Positions 54 through 48,208 of a DNA stretch of 48,561 nt are shown here, in pieces. The translations under genes were made by a program, and so were the position numbers. Each line of letters opens with the position of its first letter. Positions within the stretch are counted from its first letter, which is position 1. The stretch is from a virus, in the IMG/VR virus record IMGVR_UViG_3300038365_000082, positions 1 through 48,561 of that record. One strand, written 5' to 3'. The notes beneath the pieces are model-generated. The model was not told where the DNA came from. It saw nothing but the letters and a program-made list of their open reading frames with translations, and ran no database searches.

Positions 54-57
54 GACT

Positions 58-77: not shown

Positions 78-120
78 TGTCTCCGTAAAAACTATATCCT
101 TTTTCGACGACCCCTCACGC

Positions 121-5258: not shown

Positions 5259-5262
5259 GCGA

Positions 5263-6210: not shown

Positions 6211-6212
6211 TT

Positions 6213-6692: not shown

Positions 6693-6746
6693 GGGAACCC
6701 TCATTTGAGTTCATTTCAGTTCTCCCGCGCATTTGCGGCTGTGTTC

Positions 6747-7864: not shown

Positions 7865-7865
7865 C

Positions 7866-8072: not shown

Positions 8073-8665
8073 CAGGCCGCTCCTGCCGCACGATAGCGGT
8101 CGATGACCTGCATCTGCTCAGGCGCGAGCACCATGAGCCGAGAGAGCTCCGAGTATGCGACACTGTAACCATCCATACTCATCGAGGAGGCCCCTTTCGT
8201 CGCCCGGTTTCTCGCGGCGTGGGTGAGCGCCCCTGCGACGAGGTCCTCGACGATACCTGCGATCGCGCCCGGCGCTGCCGTGTAGCCGTATGAGTAGGTT
8301 ACGGAGACGTTGCGGAGTCCGATGGGCCACGTGGCGCCGTCGATGCGCTCCAGGATGCCCGATCCGACATCGACCTCATACTCGAGATCCTCGGTGAGCG
8401 AGACCCCGCCGACCGCGACGGAGGCCACGGCGACGATCGGGTGGCCGCGGAGCCGGAGCCGCCGCCGGCCTGAGCCATCGTAGCGCTCAGCCACGTCCTC
8501 GTGGAGGGCAAAATCCCGCCCGCAGTAGAGGTCGACGGTCTCGGATGCCTGCTCGATGAGATCGGCCGCCAGAGACGTGAGAGCGGCCTCGTCTGCGAGC
8601 CCTAAATCGGCGTACGTGATGCCGGACCGGGTAAGGGTCCGGGTCACATCTCCGTATGCCGACAT
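8072..8665 (-). CDS. Head-tail adaptor (gp6/gp15-like)
   Basis: A...VD.YCGRDF...NVSVTYSYGY...MDGYSVAY motifs. Confidence 0.8.
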   Translation of the reverse strand: MSAYGDVTRTLTRSGITYADLGLADEAALTSLAADLIEQASETVDLYCGRDFALHEDVAERYDGSGRRRLRLRGHPIVAVASVAVGGVSLTEDLEYEVDVGSGILERIDGATWPIGLRNVSVTYSYGYTAAPGAIAGIVEDLVAGALTHAARNRATKGASSMSMDGYSVAYSELSRLMVLAPEQMQVIDRYRAAGAA

Positions 8666-12400: not shown

Positions 12401-14146
12401 TTAGGATGCGTGGGGCAATCCCTCCTCTAATTGGCGGAGCTCGACGCGGGCGCAAGCGCTCCGAGCGGAATTCGCCGGACCGTTATCCGCCGCCCGGCAG
12501 CCGGGCCCCGCACTCAGCGCATTGCCCCAACCGCCCCCCGCACGCAGGATATTCCCGTTCGCCGTAACGGCGTACAACTGATCTGTGAGATACGTGTCCG
12601 AACTTCCGCTTGTCGCGGACGGTATGAACGCAAGCCCCGCAAGATCGTCGTGGAGCAATCCTGAGATATACCCGGTTGTCGTCGCCATCCCAGTGCCTGC
12701 CTCGTAGGACCCATCGGCCAGCGTGCCTGCCAGAGTGCCGAGACCGTCCCGCCGGATCAGGCGGAAAGCCCCATCAAGGTCGACGTTTGCCCCGATGATG
12801 AATTTCCAGGTGTTCCCGTAAGGGTTTTCGATCCCTCGCCAGCAGACCGGGGTCTGCCCGTTGACTCCATCCCCAGTGCCGGTGCCGTTCTCGGCGAGCC
12901 TGGAGTCGATGTTGTCTGCTCCGGTCAGTTTCCCGGCAAACCCTTCACCGCTTGGCAGATCGACGATCCCCTTGCCGAGTGCGGTCTGAATGTCGAACGT
13001 ACCGTACTCAATATACATCAGGAGTTGGTCCGCACAGTAGCCCCAGAACGATTCGCAGCCGGCGTTGCCGGGCGAGATTCTCGATGCATAGAGTTCGGCA
13101 TCGTCGATGTGGAATCTGCCACTGTTAGGCAGATCCGAATAGGCTACCCCCCCGGTGATAGGGATTTTTCCGGAGGCGGAACCGAGCCGGAACTCCCCGT
13201 TGTAGATGAGCCCGTACGACTCGTAGGCGCCGCCGTACATGTATGGGGCAGGCACTCCTCCGCCGCGCATGTAGAAGTACGGGTGGAGGGAGAACCCCTC
13301 GCGATAAGCGGGGGAGATCCACCACCGGGCGATCCCATCGTCGGCGTCATACTCTCTCTTGACCCAAAATGCGGGCTTCCGGACGAGCACGTCGCCCGCA
13401 GATCCGTCGAGGATCAGGCCGTCTCCCCGGGCATTCGATCCATATGTGATCGTGCCCGTCGCCCGGTCCCGGACGCAGCGCCGCCGTCCTCCGAACGTCG
13501 GGTGGCTGTCGAAGAATCCGAGAGCAATATCTGTGATCTCTTTTCCTGCCGCGTCGATCCGGGCGAGGGTCGGCGAGGTGGAGAGCGTATCCCACTCGAT
13601 CCCGATCACCTCGGCGGGGCACGAGTGCGGGTGCCGCCATGCCGGGGCAGCACCGGGGCCGTTGGTCGTGAGCACCTGCCCAAACTGCCCGGGGGAGAGT
13701 TTCGTCCACGCGGACGCAGTGCCATAGATCACTGCCCCGTGCTCGACTTCGAGCCCTTCTACAGTCGCGACGGGCGCGGACGCCGGGGTCGGATCGATGT
13801 GGATCGCGGTCGCAGAGGTCGCGTATCCGATAGATCGGACCACGTTGCCCGTGCTCGGTTTGGTCTGTGTCAGTGCGCCCGCGGTCGCCGGGGAGATGTA
13901 GACCGCTCCGCCGGGGGTTAGTGCCCATGCGCTGTTCGCTACGTAGCCGAGTTGCAGCACGCGCCCGGTGCCGTTGGCTGCCGCAGTGTCGAGGGCGATT
14001 GCAATGTCGCCAGCGCTCGTCGCCTCCGCGTTTGCCCGCGCGGGATACCACTTGCCGTCGGTGTGCAGGTACACGACCTGCATCGGAGTGACGGCCACTC
14101 CGAACGTCTGCCCGTTGATTGTTACTCCTGACCAGTTTGTAGTCAT
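12401..14146 (-). CDS. Head/tail fibre adhesin with C-terminal C-type-lectin (Mtd/FGE-like) domain
   Basis: WRGIENPYGNTWKF and terminal RAGGGWGNA...AGPGCR...CARVE motifs; ATGA overlap at 14143-14146. Confidence 0.8.
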   Translation of the reverse strand: MTTNWSGVTINGQTFGVAVTPMQVVYLHTDGKWYPARANAEATSAGDIAIALDTAAANGTGRVLQLGYVANSAWALTPGGAVYISPATAGALTQTKPSTGNVVRSIGYATSATAIHIDPTPASAPVATVEGLEVEHGAVIYGTASAWTKLSPGQFGQVLTTNGPGAAPAWRHPHSCPAEVIGIEWDTLSTSPTLARIDAAGKEITDIALGFFDSHPTFGGRRRCVRDRATGTITYGSNARGDGLILDGSAGDVLVRKPAFWVKREYDADDGIARWWISPAYREGFSLHPYFYMRGGGVPAPYMYGGAYESYGLIYNGEFRLGSASGKIPITGGVAYSDLPNSGRFHIDDAELYASRISPGNAGCESFWGYCADQLLMYIEYGTFDIQTALGKGIVDLPSGEGFAGKLTGADNIDSRLAENGTGTGDGVNGQTPVCWRGIENPYGNTWKFIIGANVDLDGAFRLIRRDGLGTLAGTLADGSYEAGTGMATTTGYISGLLHDDLAGLAFIPSATSGSSDTYLTDQLYAVTANGNILRAGGGWGNALSAGPGCRAADNGPANSARSACARVELRQLEEGLPHAS

Positions 14147-14164
14147 TCGATCTGCTCCTGCTTG

Positions 14165-14271
14165 CGCCACTCGTAGAGAGTGGCTTTTGATATGCCGAGA
14201 TGTTCTGCGGTCTGGTTCTTGCTCATGGTCTGCTCCATGCGGAGGAGGAGGTCTTTTAGCGATTCATGCGG
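14165..14271. repeat. 107-bp direct repeat, extra copy of the portal 3' end
   Basis: Exact match to 16195-16301. Confidence 0.97.
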
Positions 14272-14851
14272 CCGCCCGCATAGGTGAATCAGGCCAGACC
14301 ACATCTTCCGGCGTTGCAAACGCCTGTGGGATATCCCGGAGTGCCTGCCGGTAGTTTCGCCATGCTGTCTTCTGCTCTTCGGTCAACGGAGCGTCAGCGA
14401 CCTGCGTCCAGTCGCACGCAGTCAGGAGAACGTTCCGGCGGGACCGGATGTCAGCCCACTTCTCCTCTTCAGTCGGATGATACTCGCGGGGACAGTATTC
14501 GAGTTCTGTGTCAACGACCAGGAACTCCTGATAATCGCGGTTGCCGGGAGCAACCGGGATACTCGCCCCATCAGACCGCCGGATGGATGACCCGTATCGT
14601 TCGTCAACCACGACGAGGTAATCTGACGGCGTATACGGCGTGATGTCGGCAAGCGCAACCAGGCCGACTTCTTCCGTGATGATCGGCTGCGTTTCTCCTG
14701 CCTCGTCTGGTTCAGAGGGTTCTGTGAACGTCTCTACGAGTACCCGATAGAGTTCAGGTGCGAAGTCAGCAGGGAGTTCGTCTACTTCCAGCGTGCCACC
14801 GGGATACGTCAGAACGTTCCCCGATATCGAAATGATGTGATAGTAAGGCAT
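14264..14851 (-). CDS. Tail fibre assembly chaperone
   Basis: C-terminal W..IR..RN.LL...DWTQ..DAPL......W..YRQALRDIP motif. Confidence 0.88.
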   Translation of the reverse strand: MPYYHIISISGNVLTYPGGTLEVDELPADFAPELYRVLVETFTEPSEPDEAGETQPIITEEVGLVALADITPYTPSDYLVVVDERYGSSIRRSDGASIPVAPGNRDYQEFLVVDTELEYCPREYHPTEEEKWADIRSRRNVLLTACDWTQVADAPLTEEQKTAWRNYRQALRDIPQAFATPEDVVWPDSPMRAAA

Positions 14852-14853
14852 GG

Positions 14854-16176
14854 TTACAACTCCGAACTAGCGGTGATCGTCGTCGTCGCCTGCGCGTTGT
14901 GGGTCAGATTAAACCCGGTCGCCGTGATGTTTGAGGTCGTACCGGCGCTCGCGGTCATTGTCGGAGCGACCCGCATCGGCGGCCACAACGGCACGTAGAT
15001 CCGGCCATTCTCGGTCTGCTGAGTCCACGTGCGGTAGTATCGCTGGCACAGCGCCAGTTCCTCCGCAATCGGGCGCGGGGCGAACGGGAGCGGCTTGTCT
15101 CCGATGTTCGGTTGAACCTGGGCAAAGGATATATTGGAGACTGCGCCACCATGAAAAATACGTAATCCGAGATATGAACCTACTCCAACTGTTTTCCCTG
15201 AAATTGACGGGACAGCAAATGTAACGACATGTCGCTGCCAGGTTTCACTAAACGTTTGTCCTCCTATCGGAGTAGTAACTTGACTGCTGCCACCCGTTCC
15301 AAAATTTTGGAATATATATATGCTCCCGCTTTGCGGGACTGACGATTTGGCATAGAATGATAGGGTGACGACTTGTCCCGCAAATGTTCTTACATCCTCA
15401 ACGCGAGTCTCCAGAGTCACCAGCGTCCCCGCAGCAGTAATATTCATGTTCAAATAATATCCCGGATTATGTGGGACTTCAGTTTGACCGGGAGTAAACG
15501 GTTCACGAGTGATTGTAACCGAACTACCTACACTGGAATAAGATAACCACCTATCAGCATGATACGCAGTAATTGCTTCAAGTGTAAAACTCGTCCCCCT
15601 CTGCCAGATATCGAAATTCCCGTTGATGATGGCGTTCCGATATAGGCCATCCGGCAGATCTGCCCACGCCGGGTCGGCGTCCGGGCCGCCGGTCTGAAGC
15701 ACCTGCCCCTCGGTGCCGGGGGCGAGAGGCGCCCACGCGACCCCGTTGTGCGCGAGGAGATCGCCCCGGGTGCCCGTCGGGAGGTCCAGGGAGAGGTATT
15801 CCGCGAGGACCGGGTCCGTCGGCGAGAACCAGAGGGCGTCGGCCGCTGTCGGATATCCGGCATACCGGATCGTGTTCCCGACCGGCTTCGTCTGCGTAAG
15901 GGTGCCTGGGGTCGCGCCGAAATAGACCGGCTGCCCGAGGGTCCAGGTCCACCCGGTGCGCCGGATCCATCCGTATTTCAGGAGCCGCCCCTCTCCGTCG
16001 GCGACGACGCTCGTCTCGACACAGAGCGCCATGCCCCCCCGGGAGAGCAGCGGATCGCTCGCGTCCGCTCGATACCATTTTCCGTCCGCCGCGAGGCAGA
16101 ACGGAACGCCGTATGCGTCCGCAACTGTCTCGCCGAACGTCTGTTCGCCGATGACTGCTCCGGTGCGCTCACTCAT
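14854..16176 (-). CDS. Head/tail fibre protein with carbohydrate-binding (jelly-roll) C-terminal domain
   Basis: NAIINGNFDIWQRG...ADRW...RPIAEELALCQRYY motifs; N-terminus homologous to 12401..14146. Confidence 0.8.
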   Translation of the reverse strand: MSERTGAVIGEQTFGETVADAYGVPFCLAADGKWYRADASDPLLSRGGMALCVETSVVADGEGRLLKYGWIRRTGWTWTLGQPVYFGATPGTLTQTKPVGNTIRYAGYPTAADALWFSPTDPVLAEYLSLDLPTGTRGDLLAHNGVAWAPLAPGTEGQVLQTGGPDADPAWADLPDGLYRNAIINGNFDIWQRGTSFTLEAITAYHADRWLSYSSVGSSVTITREPFTPGQTEVPHNPGYYLNMNITAAGTLVTLETRVEDVRTFAGQVVTLSFYAKSSVPQSGSIYIFQNFGTGGSSQVTTPIGGQTFSETWQRHVVTFAVPSISGKTVGVGSYLGLRIFHGGAVSNISFAQVQPNIGDKPLPFAPRPIAEELALCQRYYRTWTQQTENGRIYVPLWPPMRVAPTMTASAGTTSNITATGFNLTHNAQATTTITASSEL

Positions 16177-19100
16177 TCGATCCCCTCCGATTTCCGCCAC
16201 TCGTAGAGAGTGGCTTTTGATATGCCGAGATGTTCTGCGGTCTGGTTCTTGCTCATGGTCTGCTCCATGCGGAGGAGGAGGTCTTTTAGCGATTCATGCG
16301 GTCGGCCGTGCTCCAGCAGGACAGCGGCCTGTTTGGTCAGCGGTTCGAGGGTCAACCCCTTGACGCCGCGGAGCTCCTGCGCCGTGTCGGGGAGGTCGTC
16401 CTTCAAACTCAAGCGCTGATCGCACATGCAGTTAAACGGCTGGTCCTCGCCGACGACGTAGCACTGTTTCGGGTAGTCCTTCGGCTGCCCCTTCGCCCCG
16501 GTTGCCGGGACGACGAACGACTCGCGGACCGGGACCGTGACCCCGTCCATGACGCTGTGCCACTGGCGAGACCGGCCGGGGATCTTGCGTGCTCGCCAGG
16601 TCTTGCCCTTGAGCAGGTGCTCCGTCTCCTCTGCAAGCGCCTGCTTGCCGTAGCGCTGCGCCCCCATGATCTCCGTCCGGGCAACGAGCCAGGCGTGGTC
16701 GCTCGTCATGCCGGAGACGTCGCGCTGCAGGGCGAGCCAGGCGTCGCTGACATTGCCGCCCCGCTCGACCACTCCGGTGAGCGAGGTGCGGACGAGATCC
16801 CGGATCGAGTCCTCGACGCCGCGCATGTTCCGCGCCGCCCTCTGCTGGAGGAGGCGGAACGCGAAGGTCTGCGTGACATCGAAGTCTTTGACGATCGTGA
16901 CCCGGTAGAGCCCCTTACCGACCCTGGACTCGAGTTCCTCCTCCAGCCGGCGGGATTCGAGATCAATCCCGTGCCGGAGGGCATCGGCGCGAGGTTCGGC
17001 GGTGGCGGCGAGGAGGTCCTCGGCGATCGTGATCTGGTCGAGGACCGCGTCGAGGTCTACGAGCGGTTTCGCGCCGTCCTCGCTCCGCTCCGCCGGGAAC
17101 GCCGCCTCGATTGCCGGCCGGAGGCCCTGGAGCGCGTCGTCGAACACCCCAGCCACCCGGCGGTGCAGCGCCTCAATCCGGCTCCGCCACTCCTCCGGCT
17201 CGTCGTCCGGCGCGGCTTTGAGGTCCACAAGCGCCTTCGTCACGGGGCTCTGTGCAGCGAGCAGGAGCCCGCCGCCGTAGAGCGGCTCGGGGGCGTTCTC
17301 GATGCCGACGAGTTCGCGGGCGAACCACTCCGGATGCATCCGGACGAGGGAGTCGACGAGCGCGAGCGGCATGTCGCCCCACGGCACCGGCTCCTCGCCA
17401 CGCTCGACGAGGATGCGGTTCGGGGTGCTGAGGCCGAGCCGGAGGTCGCTCTCCTGCTCCGCCCGCTTCTGCCGCTCGATGATCGGGTTGTGCGGGTCCC
17501 ACCGGAACTCAATCTCGCCGTCGACATCCCAGTACGCCTCCAAAAATGGGAGAATTGAACGGTTGATCGCCCCGGCGAGGAGTTCGAGGAGCGGGACCGT
17601 GGTGCGCCGCCAGACCGCTTCTGCCTGCTCCTGGGCAGTGTTCCCCTGAACGGCGACACACCCGTTCCTTCGCGTGACGTAGAATCCGGTGCTGGTGGAG
17701 AAACAGTAGACAAATCCTGTATAGGGCTCCAACCGCGGGCGGTAGACCGTCCTCTCGTGGTCTTCCCGGATGAGAATGCGGTAGCATGTCTGCCGCCGCT
17801 CGTCGCCATCATAGTGGACCGTCCGTTTCGTCCCATATCCCAGTTTGAACGCGAGCTCCTGGATGTCATCGGCGAGCCCCGGACTGGTGGTGGAGTAGTA
17901 ACCGCAGGCGCGGTTCTCCCGGGCGTCCCAGCTGCCGTCGCCAGCCATGAGGGCCTCGAACAAGGGGCGTAGCCTGTCGGGCGGCAGGTTCAGGCACGGG
18001 CGCGGGATCCGCTTCTCGCCGCAGTAGGCCCCGATGCTATCGAACAGGGGTTCTATCAGATGGTCGCCGTAAACATTCCAGCGCGTGGTGTTGTCACGGA
18101 CGTCCTGATACTCCCGATACTCCGCCCCGACTGCTTTCAGTACCCGGCGGATCTCTGCCACATTCTCCGAGTTCTTGTTGCTCTGGGTCAGGGTCATCAC
18201 AGAGTAGCCTAGGAGACGGTCAGACCGCACCTTCCGCTTCTTCCCCATGGCACGGTGAACGCTGCTCAGCCCGCCTTCGCTGATCGCCCATCCTAGGAAC
18301 CGCAGGTAGTCATCGGAGATCTCCATGTCTTCCCCGACCCACGCATCCGCCCCACTCTTGACGTTCACGCGGGATGCGCCAACCAGATCCTTTGCTGGCG
18401 CGACTTTCCAGGCGCGGGGGACGATCTTGGGGCGAGGCCCTCTCGGCGTGTTGTTTTGCGTTTTCCCGCCGCGATAGAGGATCTTGTGCTCCTGTGTGAT
18501 CAGGATGTCTTGGCCGTTGCTCGCGAACCTCACCAGAGCCTCATCGGCATAATACACGTGCAGGGGGCCGGGCACCTCCAGGCGGCACTCGCCTGTCTCC
18601 GGGTCGTGGACCACGATCCGCTCTCCTGGCACCACGTCCGGGTGCAGCTTCCAGCCGTTTTCGGTGAGGACCTCGGTATCCTCGCTGTAGCAGCTGCGGT
18701 TGACATCCTGGACGTAGCCGACCTCGTTTGCTGAGACACCGAAGCACATCCAGACGAGATTATTATACCACTCCTGCGAGGCGAGAAACTCCAGTTCTTT
18801 CGGTGATGCCCGGAATGGAATCCAGGTGGCGTCGGTGGAGTTCATCAGGGCGAGTTTGTGCGGCCTGCCGACGATCTCCTCTTTCCAGTACTCCCGAAAC
18901 CGGGTCAGGTTGTCATTTGACAAACCGGGGAGGTTCAGGATGCCCTCCGGCACTTCGTTCTGCGGGAAATATTTGAGGTTGCTGATGTCTTGGTTGAGCA
19001 GGATCTCGATGAGCCGGTGCGCCATCTGCACCCGGCTCCACCCGTACTGCCGGTCCGTCGAGGGGTTCTCTTCAATCCACACGATCTGGTCGCGGGAGAA

Positions 19101-31860: not shown

Positions 31861-32005
31861 TTTCTCTCTCCTTGATTCTGATCAGACCCTCGGATTTCAG
31901 GTAATCGCCGATTTTCAGCGGGAATCCGAGGGTGCGTTCGTATTCCGATTCAACAGCCCTGATAGCCTCCGGGCTGACTTCAAGCGGTTCTGGCTGGCAA
32001 CTCAT
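31853..32005 (-). CDS. 50-aa hypothetical protein, not in ORF track
   Basis: MSCQPEPLEVSPEAIRAVESEYERTLGFPLKIGDYLKSEGLIRIKERENE fills the gap and overlaps both neighbours. Confidence 0.5.
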   Translation of the reverse strand: MSCQPEPLEVSPEAIRAVESEYERTLGFPLKIGDYLKSEGLIRIKERENE

Positions 32006-32156
32006 AGCCAATCTCCTTCGCGAGTACTCTCCGGACCATGTCCGTGCGGCTCTCGTAGTCCCGCAATTTCCATGCTCTGTCGAGCACCTTTACCATATCA
32101 GGAGGCAGATAGACGTTCACCATCTTGAGCCCTCCCGACTGATTTTCCTTGTTCAC
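31980..32156 (-). CDS. Ribbon-helix-helix (CopG/Arc-like) transcriptional regulator
   Basis: MVNVYLPPDMVKVLDRAWKLRDYESRTDMVRRVL; first gene of the leftward operon; start GTG 32156 or ATG 32123. Confidence 0.75.
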   Translation of the reverse strand: MNKENQSGGLKMVNVYLPPDMVKVLDRAWKLRDYESRTDMVRRVLAKEIGYELPARTA

Positions 32157-32256
32157 GTATTCACCATAATACAATATGACAGTAGCATATATAAGCATTG
32201 CTATTCTTAGTATTACGTGCATTATAGATATTAGTAATATTACGGTGTTTTATGGG

Positions 32257-32287
32257 GCCGCACCCCCGCGGGTGCGTGGATTGAAAT
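32257..32287 (+). CRISPR. Solitary CRISPR repeat unit, type I-C-like
   Basis: GCCGCACCCCCGCGGGTGCGTGGATTGAAAT: GCACCC/GGGTGC stem plus GTGGATTGAAA(T/C) tail as in I-C repeats; single copy in the window. Confidence 0.85.
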
Positions 32288-32307
32288 CATACTCTATTGA
32301 CTCAGGA

Positions 32308-32335
32308 CAATTCCCCGGCCTCCGGGGATGAACCG
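32308..32335 (+). CRISPR. Solitary CRISPR repeat unit, type I-E-like
   Basis: CAATTCCCCGGCCTCCGGGGATGAACCG: TTCCCC...GGGGATGAACCG as in I-E repeats; 7-bp stem TCCCCGG/CCGGGGA. Confidence 0.78.
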
Positions 32336-32353
32336 ACACCTATATATAGGTGT
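32336..32353. promoter_or_regulatory. Perfect 18-bp palindrome ACACCTATATATAGGTGT around a TATA tract (operator candidate)
   Basis: Self-complementary, directly after the I-E-like repeat and about 30 nt upstream of ORF 32383. Confidence 0.6.
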
Positions 32354-32382
32354 ATATCTAATAGATATATTGTAGGATGTGA

Positions 32383-32862
32383 ATGAGAATGGAGAGAAAC
32401 GAGAAGGGAGCGTATCTTCTGAACCCGGCCGAGGTCGCCGGGGAGCACGTCGCAATATACACTCGGTACAACGGCGGGTGGATCAAGTCTGTTGAGAGCC
32501 TCGACAAGAGCCAGACGAGCGGCTACTCCCTGGTCGGGAAGTTCCTAAAATCCGGCCTGCAGTGGATGGGGCCGGGCGTCTACCTGGACTGCAGCAAAGG
32601 GGGCAGCCGGAAAAATCAGAGGAATGTCTATACAGTATTCGCCCTCCGCGAGGACGGGACGGTGATCGCCCTCAACGACGACACGATCGTCGAGGAGGGG
32701 CGCGGCGGGGATTGGGCGGTCCGGCTCTGGCCGGTCGTCGAGCGCGCGTTCGCAGCGGTCGGGGGGAGCGACGAGCGTGCCGCCCTCCTGGCCAGGAAAG
32801 CAGAGATTGAGAACGAACTCGCGGAGATCGAGGAGAAACTCCGCGCGTTGGAGAGGTCATAG
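32383..32862 (+). CDS. Early hypothetical protein with C-terminal coiled coil
   Basis: 159 aa, first gene of the rightward operon. Confidence 0.75.
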   Translation: MRMERNEKGAYLLNPAEVAGEHVAIYTRYNGGWIKSVESLDKSQTSGYSLVGKFLKSGLQWMGPGVYLDCSKGGSRKNQRNVYTVFALREDGTVIALNDDTIVEEGRGGDWAVRLWPVVERAFAAVGGSDERAALLARKAEIENELAEIEEKLRALERS

Positions 32863-33659: not shown

Positions 33660-34378
33660 CTACCTTCGCCCTCTCCCTCGACTACGACTGCCCCGTGGCG
33701 CTCTTGGAGCCCGACGGCGATGGACAGCCCCGCCGAATCTGCCTCGTCATCGACTGGGCGAGCGAGACCATCAGCGCCGAGACCCGGGCGCACGACGACA
33801 ACACCCGATCTGAATACCGTTGGCGCGGTATGGAGGATGCCTACCAACTCCCGCCGCTCGTGGACGCGACGCAGCTCCGCGAGTGGGTCAATGAGGAGGT
33901 GCTCCCGCGCGCCGCACCGCTCGCCGAGACGTATGAGACGGTCTGGGAGGACGTCGAGCAGTACGGCCGGTTCCCCGGCCACGAGCGGGAGAAGGAGGAT
34001 TTCGACGCCTGGATGGGGTCACACGAGCCGCCGCTCCACGACGGGGGCCTGTGGCGGGTCGAGGATTGGCTCTCTGGGGGAGTCAAGGAGATCGGCCCCG
34101 AGACCACGGATGCCGCGATCGAGTCGCTCGCCGACATGATCGTCGACGAGGCTGCGGCTGAAAACGTGGTGGTTGTCGCGGGGCGCGAGGCCGTCCGGGC
34201 CTACCTCCTCGACTATCGACAGGAGCTCCGCGACGCGATCCCGGAGCCGGACTGCTACCAGATCAGAGGATACGCTGTGCTGGAGGGCACCTCTAAAAAT
34301 TTCGGGGGCACGGCGCACGTCACAGTGCCGCGGAAATACTCCGGCAAGCGGGTCAAGATCGTGGTGCTGGAACCCTGA
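33656..34378 (+). CDS. Acidic hypothetical protein fused to a C-terminal DUF2080-like domain
   Basis: C-terminus FGGTAHVTVPRKYSGKRVKIVVLE matches the archaeal DUF2080 pattern. Confidence 0.75.
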   Translation: MTTFALSLDYDCPVALLEPDGDGQPRRICLVIDWASETISAETRAHDDNTRSEYRWRGMEDAYQLPPLVDATQLREWVNEEVLPRAAPLAETYETVWEDVEQYGRFPGHEREKEDFDAWMGSHEPPLHDGGLWRVEDWLSGGVKEIGPETTDAAIESLADMIVDEAAAENVVVVAGREAVRAYLLDYRQELRDAIPEPDCYQIRGYAVLEGTSKNFGGTAHVTVPRKYSGKRVKIVVLEP

Positions 34379-34402
34379 GACTTCCCGGCAAATTTGCCGG
34401 GA
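34326..34402. repeat. Direct repeat copy 2 (junction between virus A and virus B)
   Basis: Exact match to 1-77. Confidence 0.97.
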
Positions 34403-34405
34403 CGT

Positions 34406-40151: not shown

Positions 40152-41030
40152 TCATACTCCTGTGTAGCGGGATGCATACTCGATCGAGACCACGACGCTC
40201 CCGCTCGGCGTCGAAAAGGTCACGATGTTCTCACCAGGCTGCAACTGCCAGAACGTCGAGTCTGGCGACAGGTACTGCATGGCGTTGGTCTGAGTGCCGT
40301 TCGCGGCCTGCAGCCGGCAGAGCAGGTTGCCGTAGGCGGTGTCGATGAGGATCGTCTGTCCCTCCAGGACATCCAGCGTCAGGGCGATCTGCTCCCCCGT
40401 CGAGAGGTTCTCGACCACCGGATTGAGGACAGGCCCGGGGATCTCGATCCGGATCGGGGCGGCGATATCGCCCTCGTTCGTGATGATCATCGTCGATCCC
40501 ATCGCCGCGAACGAGGCCGGGAATGAGGCCGGGAACGCGAGCCCGCCCGTCAGCCCGGCGAGCGGCAGCGTGGTCGCGGCAGCGTCGAACCAGCACGGGT
40601 CCGGCGCCTGCAGGTCCACGACCACCTCCTGCCAGACCCGGCCCTGTGCCTGCCGGCCAGGAATGAACGAGGGCGAGCCGGAGAGGGCCACGCACCGGAG
40701 CGCATACTGCGACCCATCCTCCTGCGTCCAGACTAGGGTGCCGAGCCCGTTTCGCGGGTTGAACGCGGCCGCGATCCGCCGGCGTTTCTGCTCGACCCCT
40801 GCCCGGTCGGGTGCGAGGAGGAGGAACCGGACCATCAGCGTGCGGGGCGAGAGCCGGACGGTCTGCAGAGTCGTGCCGTCCTGGTAGGCTCCCCGCCGGG
40901 TCTGGATCTCGATGTCGGTGCCGCCGAACCCGTCGCTAGAGAGGTAGTGGAACATCGGCTCGGGGGCGGCCTGTGACGGGTCTGCGATCACCAGCGTGTC
41001 GCCGTTCGCGGCGAACCAGGTCAGGTGCAT
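40152..41030 (-). CDS. Distal tail protein (Dit, siphovirus tail family)
   Basis: Follows the tape measure; FNPRNGLGTL, APDP.W, N.GD..AP, F.QL.PG.N motifs. Confidence 0.88.
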   Translation of the reverse strand: MHLTWFAANGDTLVIADPSQAAPEPMFHYLSSDGFGGTDIEIQTRRGAYQDGTTLQTVRLSPRTLMVRFLLLAPDRAGVEQKRRRIAAAFNPRNGLGTLVWTQEDGSQYALRCVALSGSPSFIPGRQAQGRVWQEVVVDLQAPDPCWFDAAATTLPLAGLTGGLAFPASFPASFAAMGSTMIITNEGDIAAPIRIEIPGPVLNPVVENLSTGEQIALTLDVLEGQTILIDTAYGNLLCRLQAANGTQTNAMQYLSPDSTFWQLQPGENIVTFSTPSGSVVVSIEYASRYTGV

Positions 41031-43927
41031 CAGAGCACCACCTGCGTCCCGATGTTCCGGAGGGTGCGTTTCGTCGTGTTCATCATCGTCTCGGCGTCGG
41101 CCTTTGGGGAGTTGACGACCAGGTTCTGGATAGTCACGCCCGGCGCGTACCGGTTCAACCACGCCTGCGCGGATGCGGCGTTTGCGGACTCGACCGTCTT
41201 GTCCCCGACTTTTACCGTCTTCTGCGCGAGTTCGGCGTATTTCAGGATCGCTTCATCCGACCAGATAGTGTCGTTCCCGCGCACCACTGGTCGCCGTTCG
41301 CCGGTCGTCTGCGTGCCGGTGGCGGCGGTCTGATCGGCGCCCTGCTCGCCGGCGGCTGCTCCCCCGGACGCACCGGCAACCGCTGCACCCGACGACGACG
41401 CGACACTAAACGGTGATGTCGAGTAAGTCGGAACCTGGATGTCGCGGACAGGGGGTTTTGGCTCCCCGCCGATCGGGTTGCCATCCTTGTCATACTCAAC
41501 ATGGTAGGTGCGGGCATATGCCGGGTTAGCATCCATGAATTGGACGTACTCGGCGTGCTTCTGCGACTTGTCCGTCAGCGATTCGTTGTTGAGCTGACTC
41601 ATGAAGTTCTCGTGCGCGACCTGTGCGTCCTCCCGCGCCTTGAGCGCGTTCTGAAGTTTTCCGGTTTCGTCGTCGAGCTGCTTCTTGATCTCATCAAGCC
41701 GTGCCTGTGCGCTGGAGACGCTCTCCCCGTTTAGGGCCTTCTCAACCTCGACCTTCTCCGTCTGCTTCGCCGAGGACTCGTCGAGCGCGTCCTGATACCG
41801 ATCCTGTGCGTCGGCAACGTCGAGCACCGCCTCCCGCTCCCGGAGGAGGAGGTTTTCGAGTTCCCGCTTCGCATCGGCGTCGCCGCCCGCCGCCTCTGCC
41901 TGCTTCTGCTTGATCTCTTCCCGGAGGTCGACAAGGTCGCGTTCTGCCCGGATACGCCGGATATCGGCCCGTTCGACGTCGCGATCGGCGTCCTTGATCT
42001 TGTCTTCGATCCCAAGCGCCTTGTCGATCGTCTCCTTGAGTGCGTCGTACTCTTTCTGCAGGTTCGTGACCGTCCGCTGATGACCTGCGACGGCCTTGCT
42101 GGCCTGTTCGTAGGCAGTCTTCGCCCCATCCGCGAGCCGGCGGGTCTGGAGTTCGGTATCCCGGATTGCCTGCGCCGCCCGGTTCTCGGCGAGTTTCAGG
42201 TCGAGCGCGGAGAGCGCCGCGTCCTTCTCCGCCTGCGTCAGGTTGCCGATCGCAACGGTGCCGTCCTCAATCGCTTCGGTCGTGTCTTCAAACTCGCGGG
42301 TGAGGTCGCCGGTCGCGAGTTTGTGCCAGCCAGTCGCTTCGGTTGCCCGCCGGGTCGCGAGCGTACCCCGGTCGGTAACGACCGTCTGCGCCTTGATCCG
42401 ATCGATGTCGGCGAGGATCTGCTGCTCTTTCTTCTTGAGCACGTCGATCTCGTCCTCGATCGTCTCGGTGCTCTTCTTGGTGAGGTCGGCGGTTTCCCGG
42501 AGTGCTTCGTTGTACTCGTTCTGTGCCGTCGTCGCGTCGTTCGTGGACGCGATCAGCGGCAGGAGCACGGCGCCGAGGGTCGTCACCCCGATGATCGCCA
42601 GCCCGAGCGGGTTCGCCATGATCGCGGCGGTGAATCCCTTCGTAGCGACCGTAGCAGCGAAGGCGCTCGCCTGGTAAGTGCGGTAGAGGGAGATCGTCGA
42701 TCCTAAGGAGCCGGCGAGGGTGCCGACCGCCCAGATCGCCGGCCCGGTCGCGGCGGCGAAAAGTCCAGTGGTGACGATCACTCGCTGCGTCCCCTCGTCG
42801 AGGTTCGAGAGCCAGTTGGCAAGGCTTGTCGCGCCCTCGATCGCGGGCATCAGCGCGTCGGCGATCAGGTCGCCGAACGTGATGTTGAGGGTCTCAACGG
42901 CGCCCTCCAGTTCACGGAGCGAGCCGCCGACACCGCCCTCCATCGTCTCGGCCATCTGCTGCGCCGCCCCATCACAGTCTTCGAGGGTGGCGGCGTAGTC
43001 GTCGAGAGCTCCAGAGCCGGCGGAGAGGAGGGCGATCATTCCCGGGCCGGCCCGGTCGCCGAAGATCGTCATGGTGTCGGCGGTGGAGAGGTTCGCGGCG
43101 CCGAGGGTATCGATGATCTCAGCGAGGCTGTGTACCTGCGGGTCGACGTCGGCGGCAGTCAGGCCATACTGTGCCAGAGTCGCCGTGACCTGGGCGGTGG
43201 GGCTCATCAGGGAGGTCAGGGCACCACGGAGTGCCGTGCCTGCCATCGAGCCCTCGATGCCCGCGTTCGACATCAGCCCGATCGCGGCGGAGGTTTCCTC
43301 GATGCTGAGACCTGCAGCGCTCGCAACCGGGCCGACATACGACATGGCAGTCCCGAGTCCCTCGACCGAGGTGTTCGACGAGGACGCTGCCTGTGCGAGG
43401 ACGTCGGAGACGTGGGCGAGGTCCGATATCTCCAGGTTGAAACCGGCGAGAACGTTTGTGCTGATGTTCGCCGCGGTCCCGAGATCCAGTGCACCGGCAG
43501 ATGCAAGAGAGAGCATCTGCGGGGTTGCCGCAAGGATCTCGTTCGTATCGAGGCCAGCCTGCCCGAGATACTGCATTGCGGTGGCGACCTCAGACGCAGA
43601 CCATGCGGTGCTCGCGCCGAGGTCGATCGCCTGCTGCCGGAGCCGGTCAAACTGATCCCCGGTCGCCCCGGTGACTGCCGCGACCTGCCGCATCGAGTCG
43701 TCGAAGTCCGTCGCGGTCTTGAGCATCAGCCCCCCCGCGAGCACGAGCGGAGCGGTCACCTTCAGCGAGAGGTCGGAGCCGACGCTCGTCAGGGATTTGC
43801 CGATGCTCTTGAGGTCACCCTCAAACCCTTCGGTCTGCTTCTTCGCTTCCTCGTAGGCCCGCGTCAACCCGGCGATATCACCTACGATCTCGACGACGAG
43901 TTTTCCCGCGACGATCTCACCGGCCAT
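41030..43927 (-). CDS. Tape measure protein, TP901 family
   Basis: FDDSMRQV.AV, A.DLG.ST..SA.EVA.AM.YL..AG, GI.GS.AGTALR, MEGG.GGS motifs. Confidence 0.95.
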   Translation of the reverse strand: MAGEIVAGKLVVEIVGDIAGLTRAYEEAKKQTEGFEGDLKSIGKSLTSVGSDLSLKVTAPLVLAGGLMLKTATDFDDSMRQVAAVTGATGDQFDRLRQQAIDLGASTAWSASEVATAMQYLGQAGLDTNEILAATPQMLSLASAGALDLGTAANISTNVLAGFNLEISDLAHVSDVLAQAASSSNTSVEGLGTAMSYVGPVASAAGLSIEETSAAIGLMSNAGIEGSMAGTALRGALTSLMSPTAQVTATLAQYGLTAADVDPQVHSLAEIIDTLGAANLSTADTMTIFGDRAGPGMIALLSAGSGALDDYAATLEDCDGAAQQMAETMEGGVGGSLRELEGAVETLNITFGDLIADALMPAIEGATSLANWLSNLDEGTQRVIVTTGLFAAATGPAIWAVGTLAGSLGSTISLYRTYQASAFAATVATKGFTAAIMANPLGLAIIGVTTLGAVLLPLIASTNDATTAQNEYNEALRETADLTKKSTETIEDEIDVLKKKEQQILADIDRIKAQTVVTDRGTLATRRATEATGWHKLATGDLTREFEDTTEAIEDGTVAIGNLTQAEKDAALSALDLKLAENRAAQAIRDTELQTRRLADGAKTAYEQASKAVAGHQRTVTNLQKEYDALKETIDKALGIEDKIKDADRDVERADIRRIRAERDLVDLREEIKQKQAEAAGGDADAKRELENLLLREREAVLDVADAQDRYQDALDESSAKQTEKVEVEKALNGESVSSAQARLDEIKKQLDDETGKLQNALKAREDAQVAHENFMSQLNNESLTDKSQKHAEYVQFMDANPAYARTYHVEYDKDGNPIGGEPKPPVRDIQVPTYSTSPFSVASSSGAAVAGASGGAAAGEQGADQTAATGTQTTGERRPVVRGNDTIWSDEAILKYAELAQKTVKVGDKTVESANAASAQAWLNRYAPGVTIQNLVVNSPKADAETMMNTTKRTLRNIGTQVVL

Positions 43928-44165
43928 CTATCTCCCTCCTGATCCTGGACCCATACCGCTGCTCGATCCGCTCGACATCCGGGCCGTCCTCCCCCTCTTC
44001 CAGAGGCGGGCTCGTATGAGTCTCGGGCACCACAGCCCCTGTCAACTCCCTCGCGTATGCATCGAACATGATCACCTGCGCCCACGATAGGCGATCGAGG
44101 CAGTATTCCGGAGTCCACCCATACGTCCGGCACAGGTGGGCGACGATCCGACCTGCCTCGATCAC
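43917..44165 (-). CDS. Tail assembly chaperone T-segment
   Basis: VIEAGRIVAHLCRTYGWTPEYCLDRLSWAQ...; in the -1 frame of the upstream chaperone. Confidence 0.75.
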   Translation of the reverse strand: MIEAGRIVAHLCRTYGWTPEYCLDRLSWAQVIMFDAYARELTGAVVPETHTSPPLEEGEDGPDVERIEQRYGSRIRREIDGR

Positions 44166-44533
44166 CGGTTTTTTCCGTCTCCCTCCGTGCCGTCGCCCTT
44201 GTCCCCGCCGCCCCATCGCCGGAACGCCTGCGCGATAACGACCTGTGTCAGCCCTGCGAGCTGCGGCCGGGTGAGGTTGGCCATCAGCCACTCGTAGGTA
44301 ATCTTGGGGTTGGATATGTGGCAGATATCTGCGATCGCCATGACCATCTCGCCGTCAGGGATTTTGTCAAACCCGCCGTGTTCCTGCGTCGCCTGTGTCA
44401 GGGTCAGCGTCGCCCGGGCTGGCACGACGGTGAGATCGATCTCCTCGATCTCGTCGCCGTTCCCGATCCTGACGATCACCGGCTTTGGCGAGAGGGTGGA
44501 GAGGTCGATGATCTCAACCATGTCACACCTCAC
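44162..44533 (-). CDS. Tail assembly chaperone (gpG-like)
   Basis: Synteny; slippery A AAA AAC just before the stop. Confidence 0.78.
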   Translation of the reverse strand: MRCDMVEIIDLSTLSPKPVIVRIGNGDEIEEIDLTVVPARATLTLTQATQEHGGFDKIPDGEMVMAIADICHISNPKITYEWLMANLTRPQLAGLTQVVIAQAFRRWGGGDKGDGTEGDGKNR

Positions 44534-45093
44534 GCCGCCGGGGTCTTCGGGGCCTGCATATCGACGATCTCAAAGAGCTGTTCGCCCTCAGTCTTCGTGA
44601 GGTCCTGCACGCCGGTGAACTCAAGGGGGATCGCGGCGGCGGCGAGATCGGTGTCCGCGCTGAACGCCTGTTCGAGCCCCTTCGTCACCTGCGCCTTATA
44701 GACCGTCACCTGATAGGTCTTCCCGGCGGCGTTGGTATTCGTCAGCCGCACGGAGACGTACCCGATATCCGTTTTTCCGCCGGTTTTGAACGTATCCGAT
44801 CCAGCAGCGCTCGTAACCGTGTCGAGTGCCCCCCGGAGCGCTGCGAGCCCTGCTAGCGTCGGTTCTATCCACTCGCAGGTGACGACGACGGTTTGGTCCT
44901 TGACCTTGCGGATCGGCGGGGTGTTGTCGGGCGCGATGGTCGCGATCTCGATCTGTTCCGCGAGTTTCACGTTCCGCGCCGCCCCGATCTCCGTGTAGAC
45001 CGGCGTGGTCTCGTCGTACGGCGCTACCTCTATCTTGCACGATCCGAGCCGGATCGCGTCCTCGTTTATGATTTCCGTCTGGAATTTTGCCAT
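44530..45093 (-). CDS. Major tail protein, virus B
   Basis: 187 aa; LGSCKIEVA...IG...Y.A...G...F...PLEF.G pattern; synteny. Confidence 0.8.
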   Translation of the reverse strand: MAKFQTEIINEDAIRLGSCKIEVAPYDETTPVYTEIGAARNVKLAEQIEIATIAPDNTPPIRKVKDQTVVVTCEWIEPTLAGLAALRGALDTVTSAAGSDTFKTGGKTDIGYVSVRLTNTNAAGKTYQVTVYKAQVTKGLEQAFSADTDLAAAAIPLEFTGVQDLTKTEGEQLFEIVDMQAPKTPAA

Positions 45094-45095
45094 GT

Positions 45096-45476
45096 TTATA
45101 CCTCTAGATACGTAACGAGCATATCAACCGGAATCCAGTAGATCCCGATCTGCTCGTCGTGGTCGTCATGCTGTCCGAGATAGCGGACCTGTTCGATTCG
45201 TGCACCGTCCCGGACGCCTCGGTAGCCGTGCAGAGCGCACCGCACCGCGTCAGCGAGGTCGGCGACGGCGCGCCAGGAACCCGCCATGCAGGTATACTGC
45301 ATCCGGGCCTGGACGATCCCTGTTTTGGCGTCCTGCACCCGGCTCACCATCTGGTAGGTGATCGCCGGGAACGTCGGTTCCCGGGGAAGGTGCATCTGAT
45401 AGGCGCGGGCGCCGATGATCTCGGCGACACCAGGGTCGGTGACGAGGATAGATCGGAGGACAGACTCAATCTGCAC
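45096..45476 (-). CDS. Tail terminator (DUF3168/gp17-like)
   Basis: R.YQ..LP....PAITY...Q..C.A......LA..VR.AL motif. Confidence 0.85.
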   Translation of the reverse strand: MQIESVLRSILVTDPGVAEIIGARAYQMHLPREPTFPAITYQMVSRVQDAKTGIVQARMQYTCMAGSWRAVADLADAVRCALHGYRGVRDGARIEQVRYLGQHDDHDEQIGIYWIPVDMLVTYLEV

Positions 45477-45903
45477 GAGCCACCCTCCGTGCTATGATGT
45501 CCGCGACCGCGCCCCGGAACTCCTGGAGCGCGGGTTTTTTGTTCTCATCAAGCGCCGGTCGGAGGTGCGGCCGGGGCGCCTGGTTGTAGATGCGGCCGAG
45601 TTTGTCCGCGCCGACGAACCCGAACTCCAGCCGATGGCCCTGTGGCTGATCGTTCCCGACGATGACAGTGCACCGCTCAGGGGTTTTCTCGACGGTTTCC
45701 ATGTGGAATCCCCGGCGGTAGGTGCCGGTCTTGTAAGGGGTGCGGCCGCCCTCCGGGATAGTGATCCGCACCTGGTTGAGTACCGGCAGCGCCGCTGCCC
45801 GGGTCGCGGCCTCCAGAGCAGGGCCTTTGATGTCCTCGGCGAGCGCGACGAAGGCCTTCGCAAGATCCTCGCCGCCTTTGACGACGATCGCCGGGTCAGT
45901 CAC
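45466..45903 (-). CDS. HK97 gp10-family neck protein
   Basis: P.KTG.YRR...LEFG...PRP.LRPALDE motif. Confidence 0.88.
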   Translation of the reverse strand: MTDPAIVVKGGEDLAKAFVALAEDIKGPALEAATRAAALPVLNQVRITIPEGGRTPYKTGTYRRGFHMETVEKTPERCTVIVGNDQPQGHRLEFGFVGADKLGRIYNQAPRPHLRPALDENKKPALQEFRGAVADIIARRVARAD

Positions 45904-46133
45904 CGCAACCATCCCCCGGATACAAGCGCGGTGAAGAACGCGACGACCGCGGAGATGGCCACGGCGATCACGCCGTCCCGCCCGGTCTGCTTATCCTGCC
46001 GCGCCTTGATCTCGGCGATGCGTTCATCCTGCGCCTGGTTAGCTTCCTTGATCTCCTTGAGCGTGTCCTTGATCCACCGGACGTCCTGCCGGGTCTCGTA
46101 GATCATCGCCTGGAGAGTGGTATCGTCGGTCAC
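45900..46133 (-). CDS. Small coiled-coil plus single-TM protein (holin-like)
   Basis: GRDGVIA+TM segment, similar to 7866..8072. Confidence 0.7.
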   Translation of the reverse strand: MTDDTTLQAMIYETRQDVRWIKDTLKEIKEANQAQDERIAEIKARQDKQTGRDGVIAVAISAVVAFFTALVSGGWLR

Positions 46134-46483
46134 CGCACCACCTCGCAGGAGAGCACGGTCATCGTGTCAAGCGTGTGCTCGGCGAGCAGGATGTTGTAGG
46201 TTGTGCCGCCGACGATCGCCTGGTCGGACTCGACGATATCGGGGTAGTGCCCCTGCAGGGCGATCGCTGTGGTCGCGACGACGTAGGTCTGGTTCGGCCC
46301 CCGGATCTCCTTGCCCTTAAGCGACGTGACGTTACACGGCACAGCCGCGTGCCGGTCTTTCCAGGTGGTTACAACCTGCCCGTCGGCATCGACAGTCTCC
46401 GTCAGGTATTGCACCTGGCAGAGGCTCGGGAAATGGCTCTGTAATGCCCCCATGAGCCGGGGGTCGACGAAGGCGGGTCTCAT
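46130..46483 (-). CDS. Head closure protein
   Basis: ETVDADGQVVTTW...YNIL pattern; synteny. Confidence 0.75.
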   Translation of the reverse strand: MRPAFVDPRLMGALQSHFPSLCQVQYLTETVDADGQVVTTWKDRHAAVPCNVTSLKGKEIRGPNQTYVVATTAIALQGHYPDIVESDQAIVGGTTYNILLAEHTLDTMTVLSCEVVR

Positions 46484-46839
46484 AGACCCCTCCGGAGGTC
46501 GGCCGAGAACGGCGTCCACGGTCCCGGGATGATCTCGATGAGATCCTCGTCGTCAGTCGCTGCCTGAGCACGGAGGCTCTCCGCCTGTTGATGTAATGCG
46601 TTGGCTACCGCTTGCCCGTTCGTCTTGAGGCCGTTGACCTCGATGTACTTGAGGATCAGGACCTGCGAGGCGGCGATCTGGTCGAGCGCCATCGCGGCTG
46701 CGAGCCGGACATCCTGCTCGTTGAGCGAGAGGAAAACGCCGATCTCTTCGTCGGTGAAGATCTCGTAGTCAGGATCGCGGTCGGTGCAGAGCAGCCGCAC
46801 GGTACCGGTCGGGGTGCCGGGATCGTACGTGAATGTCAT
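46480..46839 (-). CDS. Head-tail adaptor
   Basis: MTFTYDP...VRLL..D......FTDEEI..FL motif. Confidence 0.8.
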   Translation of the reverse strand: MTFTYDPGTPTGTVRLLCTDRDPDYEIFTDEEIGVFLSLNEQDVRLAAAMALDQIAASQVLILKYIEVNGLKTNGQAVANALHQQAESLRAQAATDDEDLIEIIPGPWTPFSADLRRGL

Positions 46840-46997
46840 TCCTTCGGCTCCTTCAGGCGGCGGGGCCGGGGCTTGCCCTCGCCCCGGATCTCAGTGCGGA
46901 TTGCTCGCAGTTCGTTGATGATCTCCTTCTGTCCGTCGATGGCGTCACAGAGGAGTTTATCTGTTACAGTGACCGGAGTCGGCGGGATTTTACCCAT
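46836..46997 (-). CDS. 53-aa hypothetical protein, not in ORF track
   Basis: MGKIPPTPVTVTDKLLCDAIDGQKEIINELRAIRTEIRGEG...; GAGGTGA upstream; ATGA overlap at its stop. Confidence 0.6.
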   Translation of the reverse strand: MGKIPPTPVTVTDKLLCDAIDGQKEIINELRAIRTEIRGEGKPRPRRLKEPKE

Positions 46998-47023
46998 ATC
47001 ACCTCACCTCCGGGAGGGGGGGA

Positions 47024-48208
47024 TTACGTCCCCGAGCCTGCACCGGTGCTGCCGACCGTGAACCGATAGTCCCCCTGCCGACCGCCGAACACCGCCCTGA
47101 CCTTGAACTGGATCGAGTCCGTGTCGAAATCACCATCGTAGGCAGTCGCAGCGGTCCCGGAGAGACCGATCGCGTTCGGGCTCTTCATGAAGATCGCCGG
47201 GGCCTCGTGCCCGCGAAGGTGCGCCACCTCGACCGCCCCGCGACCCTCGGCCGGATCGGCGAACAGATACCACTGTGTGTGGGCGTTTGCAGTCTTGGCG
47301 AGGATCGGCGCATAGGGAAGGACGGCCTTCTTGAGCCCGCCAGCCTTGATCCAGTTTGTCGTCTCGATCTCCTGCTCACTGGTCCCGCCGCCACTTGTCC
47401 GGGCCTTGATGATGAGCGCGTTGATGATGTTGTCAGCGGTCACCTCCAGCGCCGGCGGCACGGCGAGGACTGTGGGGCGATTGAGGATCGGTTCTCCGCC
47501 GGCATCGGTCATCTCGCTCATCGCCTGGAAACCCTCCTGCACGGCCACCACGGAGAGCGGGGAGGTGAGCAGGTTGCCCTGTGCCTCTGAGTAGAGTGTC
47601 GAGTCGGGGCCGCTCGCGCCTACGATCAAGCTGGTGGCGAACTTCTCCTCAGTCCGCGCGGCAGCCAGGCCGAACCGCTTCGGGATGTCGGCAAACGCGC
47701 CCATTGCGTCGTTCCGGATCATCTCCCAGGTGAGCGGGATGCGGGTTCCGTACTTCTTGACCCGGAAGGACTTCTTCGCCTCTGCGAGCGTGGTCGCGGG
47801 ATACTCGTTCTGTACCCCGACCTCAGGGAGTGTGCCGTCCCCGCCGGTGACCTCGTAGCGCTCGGCGTCGCGGAAGTCGTTAACCTGCCCGACCATCGCC
47901 CATGCTGGGTATGAGACCGGCCACGCCTTGTAGGAGCCGACCATCGTCTGGTTGAGCGCGACGCCCATCAGGAGCGGGAAGTCGCTTGCGCCCATCGCCT
48001 CACGGAGACGGTTCGCGCCGACATCTCCGATCTGGACGGCCTCGATTAGGTCAAGGGTTCGGATCACGCGCTGGTTGAACGCGACCCGATCGGCCTCACT
48101 CATTCGGCTGTAGATCTGCGAGACGGAGACGCCCGCTTCGCCGAAGAAGTTCTTGATCGATGCGTTTTCCTTGGTGATGTCCCCCATCACGTCGTCAACT
48201 GTTGCCAT
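47024..48208 (-). CDS. Major capsid protein, Mu gpT-like family, virus B
   Basis: SDFPLL...V.DFR...LPEV....EY...KYG..I.LT.EMI.NDA.GAF...G.AAARTE motif. Confidence 0.88.
   Translation of the reverse strand: MATVDDVMGDITKENASIKNFFGEAGVSVSQIYSRMSEADRVAFNQRVIRTLDLIEAVQIGDVGANRLREAMGASDFPLLMGVALNQTMVGSYKAWPVSYPAWAMVGQVNDFRDAERYEVTGGDGTLPEVGVQNEYPATTLAEAKKSFRVKKYGTRIPLTWEMIRNDAMGAFADIPKRFGLAAARTEEKFATSLIVGASGPDSTLYSEAQGNLLTSPLSVVAVQEGFQAMSEMTDAGGEPILNRPTVLAVPPALEVTADNIINALIIKARTSGGGTSEQEIETTNWIKAGGLKKAVLPYAPILAKTANAHTQWYLFADPAEGRGAVEVAHLRGHEAPAIFMKSPNAIGLSGTAATAYDGDFDTDSIQFKVRAVFGGRQGDYRFTVGSTGAGSGT

Follow-up and report, generated by a model that had tools for sequence, protein, structure and literature searches.

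A cassette in a tailed methanogen virus, composed of a type I-C-like CRISPR repeat, a 20-nt guide and a type I-E-like CRISPR repeat, is in our estimate (about 70% probable) the remaining left half of a mixed-subtype array of Cracr-like guides carried by the virus, and it would silence the host type I-C system through the start of cas5d. The cassette appears to derive from the host's own CRISPR self-regulating guides and would probably make the host I-C machinery block its own genes. If this is true, guide-based anti-CRISPR RNAs extend from bacterial phages to the viruses of methanogens, and the reported rule of one CRISPR type per viral array is broken. Both host targets can be named to the base, which makes the claim testable. 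The whole stretch of DNA analysed, 48,561 nt in length, is referred to here as the window; L-numbers denote contigs and G-numbers genomes, as labelled in the analysis.

The cassette and its viral surroundings

The earlier note described two CRISPR-repeat-like units in one orientation and with intact stems, and both were indeed found at that place on the + strand, each with a 7-bp stem. The type I-C repeat mimic (32256-32287, + strand), recognised by its fold and by comparison with host repeats, has its stem at 32259-32265/32270-32276 followed by an 11-nt 3' tail, and this handle (32277-32287) is identical to the tail of the I-C array repeat in Methanoculleus. Even divergent viral variants keep the base of this stem; in L002 and L016 one A-U pair has become C-G. 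Next comes guide 1 (32288-32307, + strand, 20 nt), with the seed CATACTCTATT, which is recognised by its conservation, a host counterpart and a PAM-flanked target. The 28-nt type I-E repeat mimic (32308-32335, + strand), identified by its fold and by comparison with host CreRs, pairs 32312-32318 with 32322-32328 around a 3-nt loop; it has the 28-nt, 3-nt-loop form of most host CreR first repeats and not that of the 29-nt array repeat. This unit would bound guide 1 on the 3' side, and the predicted Cas6e cut after 32327 would leave an 8-nt handle leading no functional guide in the window copy. At its end lies a deletion junction with a single copy of the 8-nt microhomology AACCGACA (32331-32338, + strand), detected by comparison with L021, L033 and L165. 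The paired-repeat pattern occurs once in the window and in 0/100 dinucleotide shuffles. Also in agreement with the earlier note, a repeat search found no CRISPR array in the window, and there was no cas gene among the 30 ORFs, a subset of those present, which were scanned against Pfam or PHROGs; no relevant Rfam family was found.

The putative archaeal promoter of the cassette is located at 32220-32249 (+ strand), where the TATA-like TTATAG (32222-32227), 34 nt 5' of the first repeat, would serve as the promoter element; the TATA boxes of host CreRs stand about 30 nt 5' of their repeat. A scan for sigma-70 promoters and terminators, a method ill-suited to archaea, gave no match. The stretch 32235-32249 closely resembles the bases just 5' of the host I-E CreR repeat of G026, which suggests that the promoter and repeat of an I-E CreR were captured and that the I-C unit was placed between them.

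Terminase, portal, capsid, tail, primase and RecT genes (Pfam/PHROGs, 30 ORFs) identify the window as a tailed virus, and the cassette sits at its one divergent promoter region. The closest annotated relative is Methanoculleus virus Blf4, a cultured virus from which the cassette is absent. Upstream is a small divergent ORF (31980-32123, - strand) with a weak match to a transcriptional repressor (PHROG 4738, E 7.7e-4), which on comparison of the copies is a neighbour outside the cassette, since other cassette copies have different upstream DNA. Downstream, 32336-32382 (+ strand) is the promoter region of the early operon and not a guide; it opens with an 18-nt palindrome (32336-32353). The same promoter is found 3' of the 88-nt insert in L021, L033 and L165, and a related one precedes the homologous gene in Blf4 without any cassette. 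No PAM-flanked target was found for 32336-32382, and the bases 3' of the I-E repeat were rejected as a new guide, with 3-4/10 at cas8e promoters and at most 7/10 in I-E loci. The palindrome is likewise unsupported as a part of the cassette or as a conserved operator: it is present in L021, L033 and L165, but imperfect in L001, which has the same upstream repressor-like gene as the window. The first early ORF (32383-32862, + strand, 159 aa) has homologous DNA in Blf4 and gave no Pfam or PHROG match and no usable atlas match; the ORFs 3' of the cassette gave no informative match in Pfam, PHROGs and the atlas. Elsewhere, an unrelated virus with a homologue of ORF 32383 (L003-L005:3500-4010) has three short hairpin-like repeats before successive small early genes, and within the window a 136-nt direct repeat (14143-14278 and 16173-16308, 94% identical) flanks a fibre-like gene.

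Guide 1 and the start of cas5d in Methanoculleus

The host set comprises 48 genomes of one genus, reached via a host contig, and the Cas5d of one of these genomes is that of Methanoculleus sp. at NCBI; Methanoculleus is an abundant methanogen of biogas plants (PMC8540584). Of the 37 spacers which match the window with at most 4 mismatches, 34 are from Methanoculleus genomes and three from a metagenome array with the same repeat. cas5d scored above the cut-off in 14/48 genomes and cas6e in 10/48, and G004, G019 and G031 carry both; with the identical I-C tail, this makes Methanoculleus a genus with the two matching systems that the earlier note had envisaged. The flanks over all viral sequences tested gave empirical PAMs of TTC (53), CTC (7) and TTT (5) for I-C, and of AAG (8) and ATG (3) for I-E.

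The first 11 nt of the insert, i.e., the seed, are conserved in 8 relatives while the remainder diverges, and in L016 the seed is kept even though the I-C stem and the remaining insert bases are different. The seed recurs in the host, behind a degenerate I-C repeat at the array trailer ends of G002, G017 and G043: the match is 11/11 to the trailer units of G002 and G043, which would be CreRs, and G017 has a T/C change at position 6 only. Several degenerate repeats and conserved spacers were seen in the I-C array trailers of these genomes (L056:1330-1640, L084 and L093:9660-9990). Conservation extends to the spacer that precedes guide 1 and has the core TTCAAGCAGCA; no target was found for it, and the host I-C trailer may be a regulatory trailer with multiple guides.

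A search of the insert against the host with PAM, as the earlier note had proposed, led to the antisense strand over the start of host cas5d, at a site flanked by TTC or CTC and with the full seed in some hosts; in 6/10 homologous I-C loci it is the best PAM-flanked site. The site agrees at 10/10 informative seed positions in G043, L231 and L232 (all CTC) and in L233 and L243 (both TTC), at 9/10 in G004 (TTC), G015 and G039, and at 7/10 in G011, G017, G019 and G042; the four L-numbered contigs at 10/10 belong to 13 further cas5d contigs, of which the other nine score 7-8/10. No cas5d-start site was found in the I-C locus clade of G014, G031, G033, G042:C53 and G046. The fit of guide 1 is very good in some hosts and poor in others, which is what escape by the host or its range of hosts would lead one to expect. 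The poor matches, the clade that lacks the site and G017, whose site is one of those at 7/10 even though this genome carries the host guide, nevertheless count against the silencing model. Null tests against shuffled guides or random 11-mers gave p values of 0.0006-0.0016, which are rough as the loci are homologous. It should be noted that TTC-CAT corresponds to a frequent codon pair read in reverse; with CAT, the first three bases, held fixed the null still gave p 0.003. The target overlaps the start of cas5d inside the operon, and in several genomes a TATA-like tract, recognised from sequence only, lies about 65-70 nt upstream.

The pairing pattern at this site has a bearing on how guide 1 would work. 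The trailer guide of G043 pairs with its own site over 15 positions and the viral guide of L012 pairs there over 16, in both cases with mismatches at 6 and 12 only, and guide 1 of the window pairs with the G043 site at 1-5, 7-11 and 14-16. Type I Cascade does not read guide positions 6 and 12. Guide 1 could instead be an antisense RNA on the start region of the cas5d mRNA, blocking translation rather than transcription, as the target spans the probable cas5d start codon and the L012 guide also pairs with the ribosome-binding GAGG in G043; mismatches at just the two positions that Cascade leaves unread, together with a valid PAM flanking the site, speak against this and make it a very remote prospect.

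The same observations bear on the earlier note's reading of the two units as solitary Racr decoys. In its pure form this would mean that the repeats do no more than titrate Cas5d/Cas7 and Cas6e/Cas7e and that the sequence of the insert is irrelevant filler. A decoy pair would agree with the intact hairpins and handles on both units, with an I-E unit that after the deletion is a repeat without a guide, and with the variant cassettes of L002 (1517-1529) and L030 (282-294), which have a shorter I-C stem and a different insert of 10-13 nt for which neither a target nor a host counterpart was found; Cracrs, moreover, compete for Cas proteins too (bioRxiv 10.1101/2024.10.29.618823). It does not account for an insert seed that is conserved while the rest diverges and that recurs in host trailers, nor for a target over cas5d that is flanked by a PAM and shows the mismatches at positions 6 and 12, and we consider it quite unlikely. 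The insert is better understood as a conserved guide, and the I-E unit as the leading repeat of a second guide unit that the window has lost.

Other TTC-flanked matches to the seed in host genomes (G040:C82, G020:C16 and G002:C38) were set aside as chance, genome-wide counts being no higher than in the reversed control, and no cas or toxin context was seen at them. In the viruses no self-target was found, and the best PAM-flanked viral match of guide 1 was 8/10 (six viral sequences). In L136-L145 and L231-L243 the position at which cas5d homologues start, some 5 nt downstream of a ribosome site of the GGAGG type, has a conserved ATA or ATT instead of ATG; cas5d may use a non-standard start codon in these contigs, and in-frame GTG or ATG alternatives occur in some contigs.

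A second guide in related viruses and its apparent loss from the window

The pair was also searched for in related viruses and was found, with both hairpins conserved, on 10 contigs (L001, L002, L012, L016, L021, L029, L030, L033, L047 and L165) which fall into at least three upstream contexts. The full layout in these relatives is I-C repeat, guide 1, I-E repeat, guide 2 and a degenerate I-E repeat: the spacer after the I-E repeat opens with the same 11 nt, ACATTGTACAA, in 10/10, and a degenerate second I-E hairpin follows guide 2 in 7/10. The description of the units as solitary is thus right for the window copy and wrong for the family.

Guide 2 has its own counterpart in the host. In host I-E loci a degenerate mini-array is located some 240-290 nt 5' of cas3, and its spacer matches a site directly after TATAAG in the cas8e promoter, with AAG as the PAM. 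This guide and the cas8e site covary in 6 genomes, own pairs agreeing at 8-10/10 informative seed positions and the most distant cross pairs at 6-7/10. In the viral relatives, guide 2 matches this same AAG-flanked site, at the TATA box of host cas8e; it has the G026/G045 seed and scores 9/10 on the G026 cas8e promoter. This seed, together with the 28-nt, 3-nt-loop form of the repeat, clearly indicates that the viral I-E unit derives from a host I-E CreR element. Two candidate Methanoculleus circuits emerge, i.e., the covarying I-E guide at the cas8e TATA box and the I-C trailer guide aimed at cas5d. Guide 2 also resembles ORFs of L102, L116 and L130 that are transposase-like and possibly TnpB, a likeness that was rejected for want of an AAG or ATG PAM.

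The window copy looks like the product of a microhomology deletion which removed 88 nt containing guide 2, because L021, L033 and L165 share the window's flanks and keep 88 extra nt between two copies of the 8-mer; L165, which encodes an identical downstream protein, retains guide 2. In these three contigs the second I-E repeat has already been replaced by an IS-end-like hairpin, similar to one 5' of a transposase-like ORF in L001, so the I-E arm was decaying in this lineage. The series from intact cassette to replaced second repeat to deleted guide illustrates how a "solitary repeat" can arise from a guide array, and bears on how Racr candidates are called.

An alternative is that the 88-nt deletion arose as an artefact of amplification or assembly and that the virus has an intact two-guide cassette silencing both I-C and I-E, which would leave the mechanism of guide 1 unchanged. 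Guide 2 is kept in all 10 other contigs, including L165, and the contig itself appears composite: bases 1-80 of the window recur at 34326-34405, and there are two major capsid genes, with capsid-type matches in both parts (9689-10864 and 10874-11836; 41030-48208). The contig resembles a circular virus of 34.3 kb to which a portion of another virus has been attached at the 80-nt repeat, the join being either an assembly chimera or an exchange of modules; beyond the repeat, L029 runs into window 1-8644, and L012 and L033 run into the module from 34406 onwards. An 8-nt repeat, however, is too short to collapse in k-mer assembly, the junction is that of a clean microhomology deletion, and the second I-E repeat of the closest relatives had already been replaced, so that an artefact seems unlikely and we prefer a genuine deletion. 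A short palindromic element at the repeated junction (window 52-83 and 34377-34405) was also noted at L073:1600-1625, Methanoculleus contig G040:C82.

The progressive loss of the I-E arm could also be taken to mean that the whole cassette is a neutral relic of host CRISPR DNA, acquired by recombination and now decaying. Against this, divergent viruses, with the cassette in three genomic contexts, have retained the handles, the stems and both seeds, whereas their loops, distal spacer and flanks differ, and a relic therefore seems highly improbable.

Several related arrangements were observed in other contigs. Host I-C array spacers in L014, L025, L038 and L227 resemble the degenerate second I-E repeat of the L002/L016-type cassette, and hosts may through them target the anti-CRISPR cassette itself. 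The window's layout recurs in an unrelated context in L018:12955, L035 and L037, where an I-C repeat, an insert of 18-20 nt and a single I-E repeat stand directly before a ribosome site and ORF. In the metagenome contigs L015, L020, L023, L026, L028, L032, L034 and L049 an I-C array is followed immediately by an I-E repeat or array, so that mixed I-C/I-E junctions are found in ordinary arrays as well. Isolated I-C repeats, with no array visible in 600 bases, are present at L008:4992, L010:6352 and L011:1376, in MAGs of Pelotomaculum, Dehalococcoidia and Syntrophomonas, with L010 and L011 having the same surrounding DNA despite their different labels.

Predicted action and comparison with known systems

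From this layout we infer transcription, both cuts, Cascade loading and repression as follows. An early transcript would start near 32247-32250. Cleavage by Cas5d falls at the foot of the I-C stem and produces a 5' tag of 11 nt, that by Cas6e a tag of 8 nt (PMC5965381); the host Cas5d would cut the first repeat after 32276 to give the 11-nt handle, and the host Cas6e, where present, would cut the second repeat after 32327. The predicted product is a 51-nt RNA (32277-32327) made up of the I-C handle, the 20-nt guide and the I-E hairpin, and the chimeric RNA put forward in the earlier note thus agrees with the fold and the known cut sites. This RNA would load into I-C Cascade, where the foreign I-E 3' hairpin is perhaps tolerated because what Cas5d recognises is the base of the stem and the 3' overhang from which the handle is formed (PMC5965381). 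The loaded Cascade would bind the cas3-cas5d junction through a partial match of 12-16 nt and, since such a match is too short to recruit Cas3, would not lead to cleavage but would block transcription into cas5d-cas8c-cas7, either as a roadblock or at an internal promoter. Partial-match guides too short for cleavage are known from CreR (bioRxiv 10.1101/2023.03.10.532045) and Cracr (bioRxiv 10.1101/2024.10.29.618823). The chimeric RNA would in addition compete with immune crRNAs. In the relatives the second cut would also free the I-E guide against the cas8e TATA box, and the earlier proposal that two systems are disabled at once would hold for them in the form of guided silencing of both; the window copy has lost guide 2, and its I-E repeat would serve as a 3' boundary only, perhaps also as a Cas6e decoy. 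We would give somewhat less than even odds to the reading in its full extent, namely that Cas5d and Cas6e together process a single transcript of an archaeal virus into a chimeric I-C guide, with an I-E hairpin at its 3' end, which parks I-C Cascade on the cas5d start within the operon that encodes it, that the intact cassette silences two subtypes from one RNA, and that this represents both the first Cracr array of mixed subtype and the first Cracr from a virus of archaea, as well as evidence for a new I-C autoregulatory guide in the trailers of host arrays.

Among known systems, the mini-CRISPR arrays of archaeal viruses involved in inter-viral conflict (Medvedeva et al. 2019, PMC6858448) are similar in being Cas-less mini-arrays that use host Cas proteins. 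They differ in having full-length spacers that match another virus, whereas here the spacers are short and match host cas loci, guide 1 having 20 nt and a PAM-flanked match of at most 8/10 in six viral sequences. The Racrs (Camara-Wilpert et al. 2023, PMC10651486; RacrIC1, RacrIE1/2) share with the cassette the repeat mimics behind a viral promoter, the lack of cas genes and a subtype that matches the host. A Racr is a single repeat without a partner repeat or host-matching guide; the cassette is not solitary in origin and has a conserved guide with a host target, and only the orphaned I-E repeat of the window is Racr-like.

The host CreR/CreA mini-arrays (bioRxiv 10.1101/2023.03.10.532045; Shmakov et al., PMC10120712) also match cas regulatory DNA partially, and the element 5' of cas3 in Methanoculleus I-E loci, with its target at the cas8e promoter, can be assigned to them. 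The viral units appear to be copies of such host elements, with the differences that they are virus-encoded and that the host I-C counterpart is found among degenerate units at the array trailer and not in a cas intergenic region.

The closest likeness is to Cracrs (Liu et al., bioRxiv 10.1101/2024.10.29.618823), which are virus-encoded degenerate repeats with a short guide that shares the host CreR seed and matches a PAM-flanked site at host cas genes; the units can be stacked, and I-C and I-E Cracrs are both listed. Like them, the cassette lies on a virus and outside a CRISPR-cas locus (it is surrounded by viral genes, with no cas among the 30 ORFs) and has a cognate handle and hairpin (11-nt I-C handle identical to the host's, 7-bp stem). 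At least nine PAM-proximal bases are shared by a Cracr with a host CreR/CreA spacer, and here the agreement is 11/11 with the putative host CreRs; the partial match to a PAM-flanked site in cas/creT regulatory DNA is found at the cas5d start (G043, L231-L233 and L243) and is poor in other hosts. With these sequence features the cassette would be expected to act as a Cracr. In the main text of the Cracr preprint, co-encoded Cracrs always target variants of the same type, the hosts listed are bacteria and the word "archaea" is absent; no mixed-subtype or archaeal Cracr was found in the further papers searched. Here, in contrast, the host belongs to the archaea, the I-C guide has its target within the operon, at the start of cas5d, and I-C and I-E units are fused in one cassette in which the I-E repeat closes the I-C guide. 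The two or more different guides of a Cracr array are present in the 10 relatives, while the window keeps guide 1 only. Because it combines I-C and I-E units, the cassette is a variant of the Cracr array and not a plain member, to which the window adds a deletion series and further hosts with a canonical PAM and the full seed.
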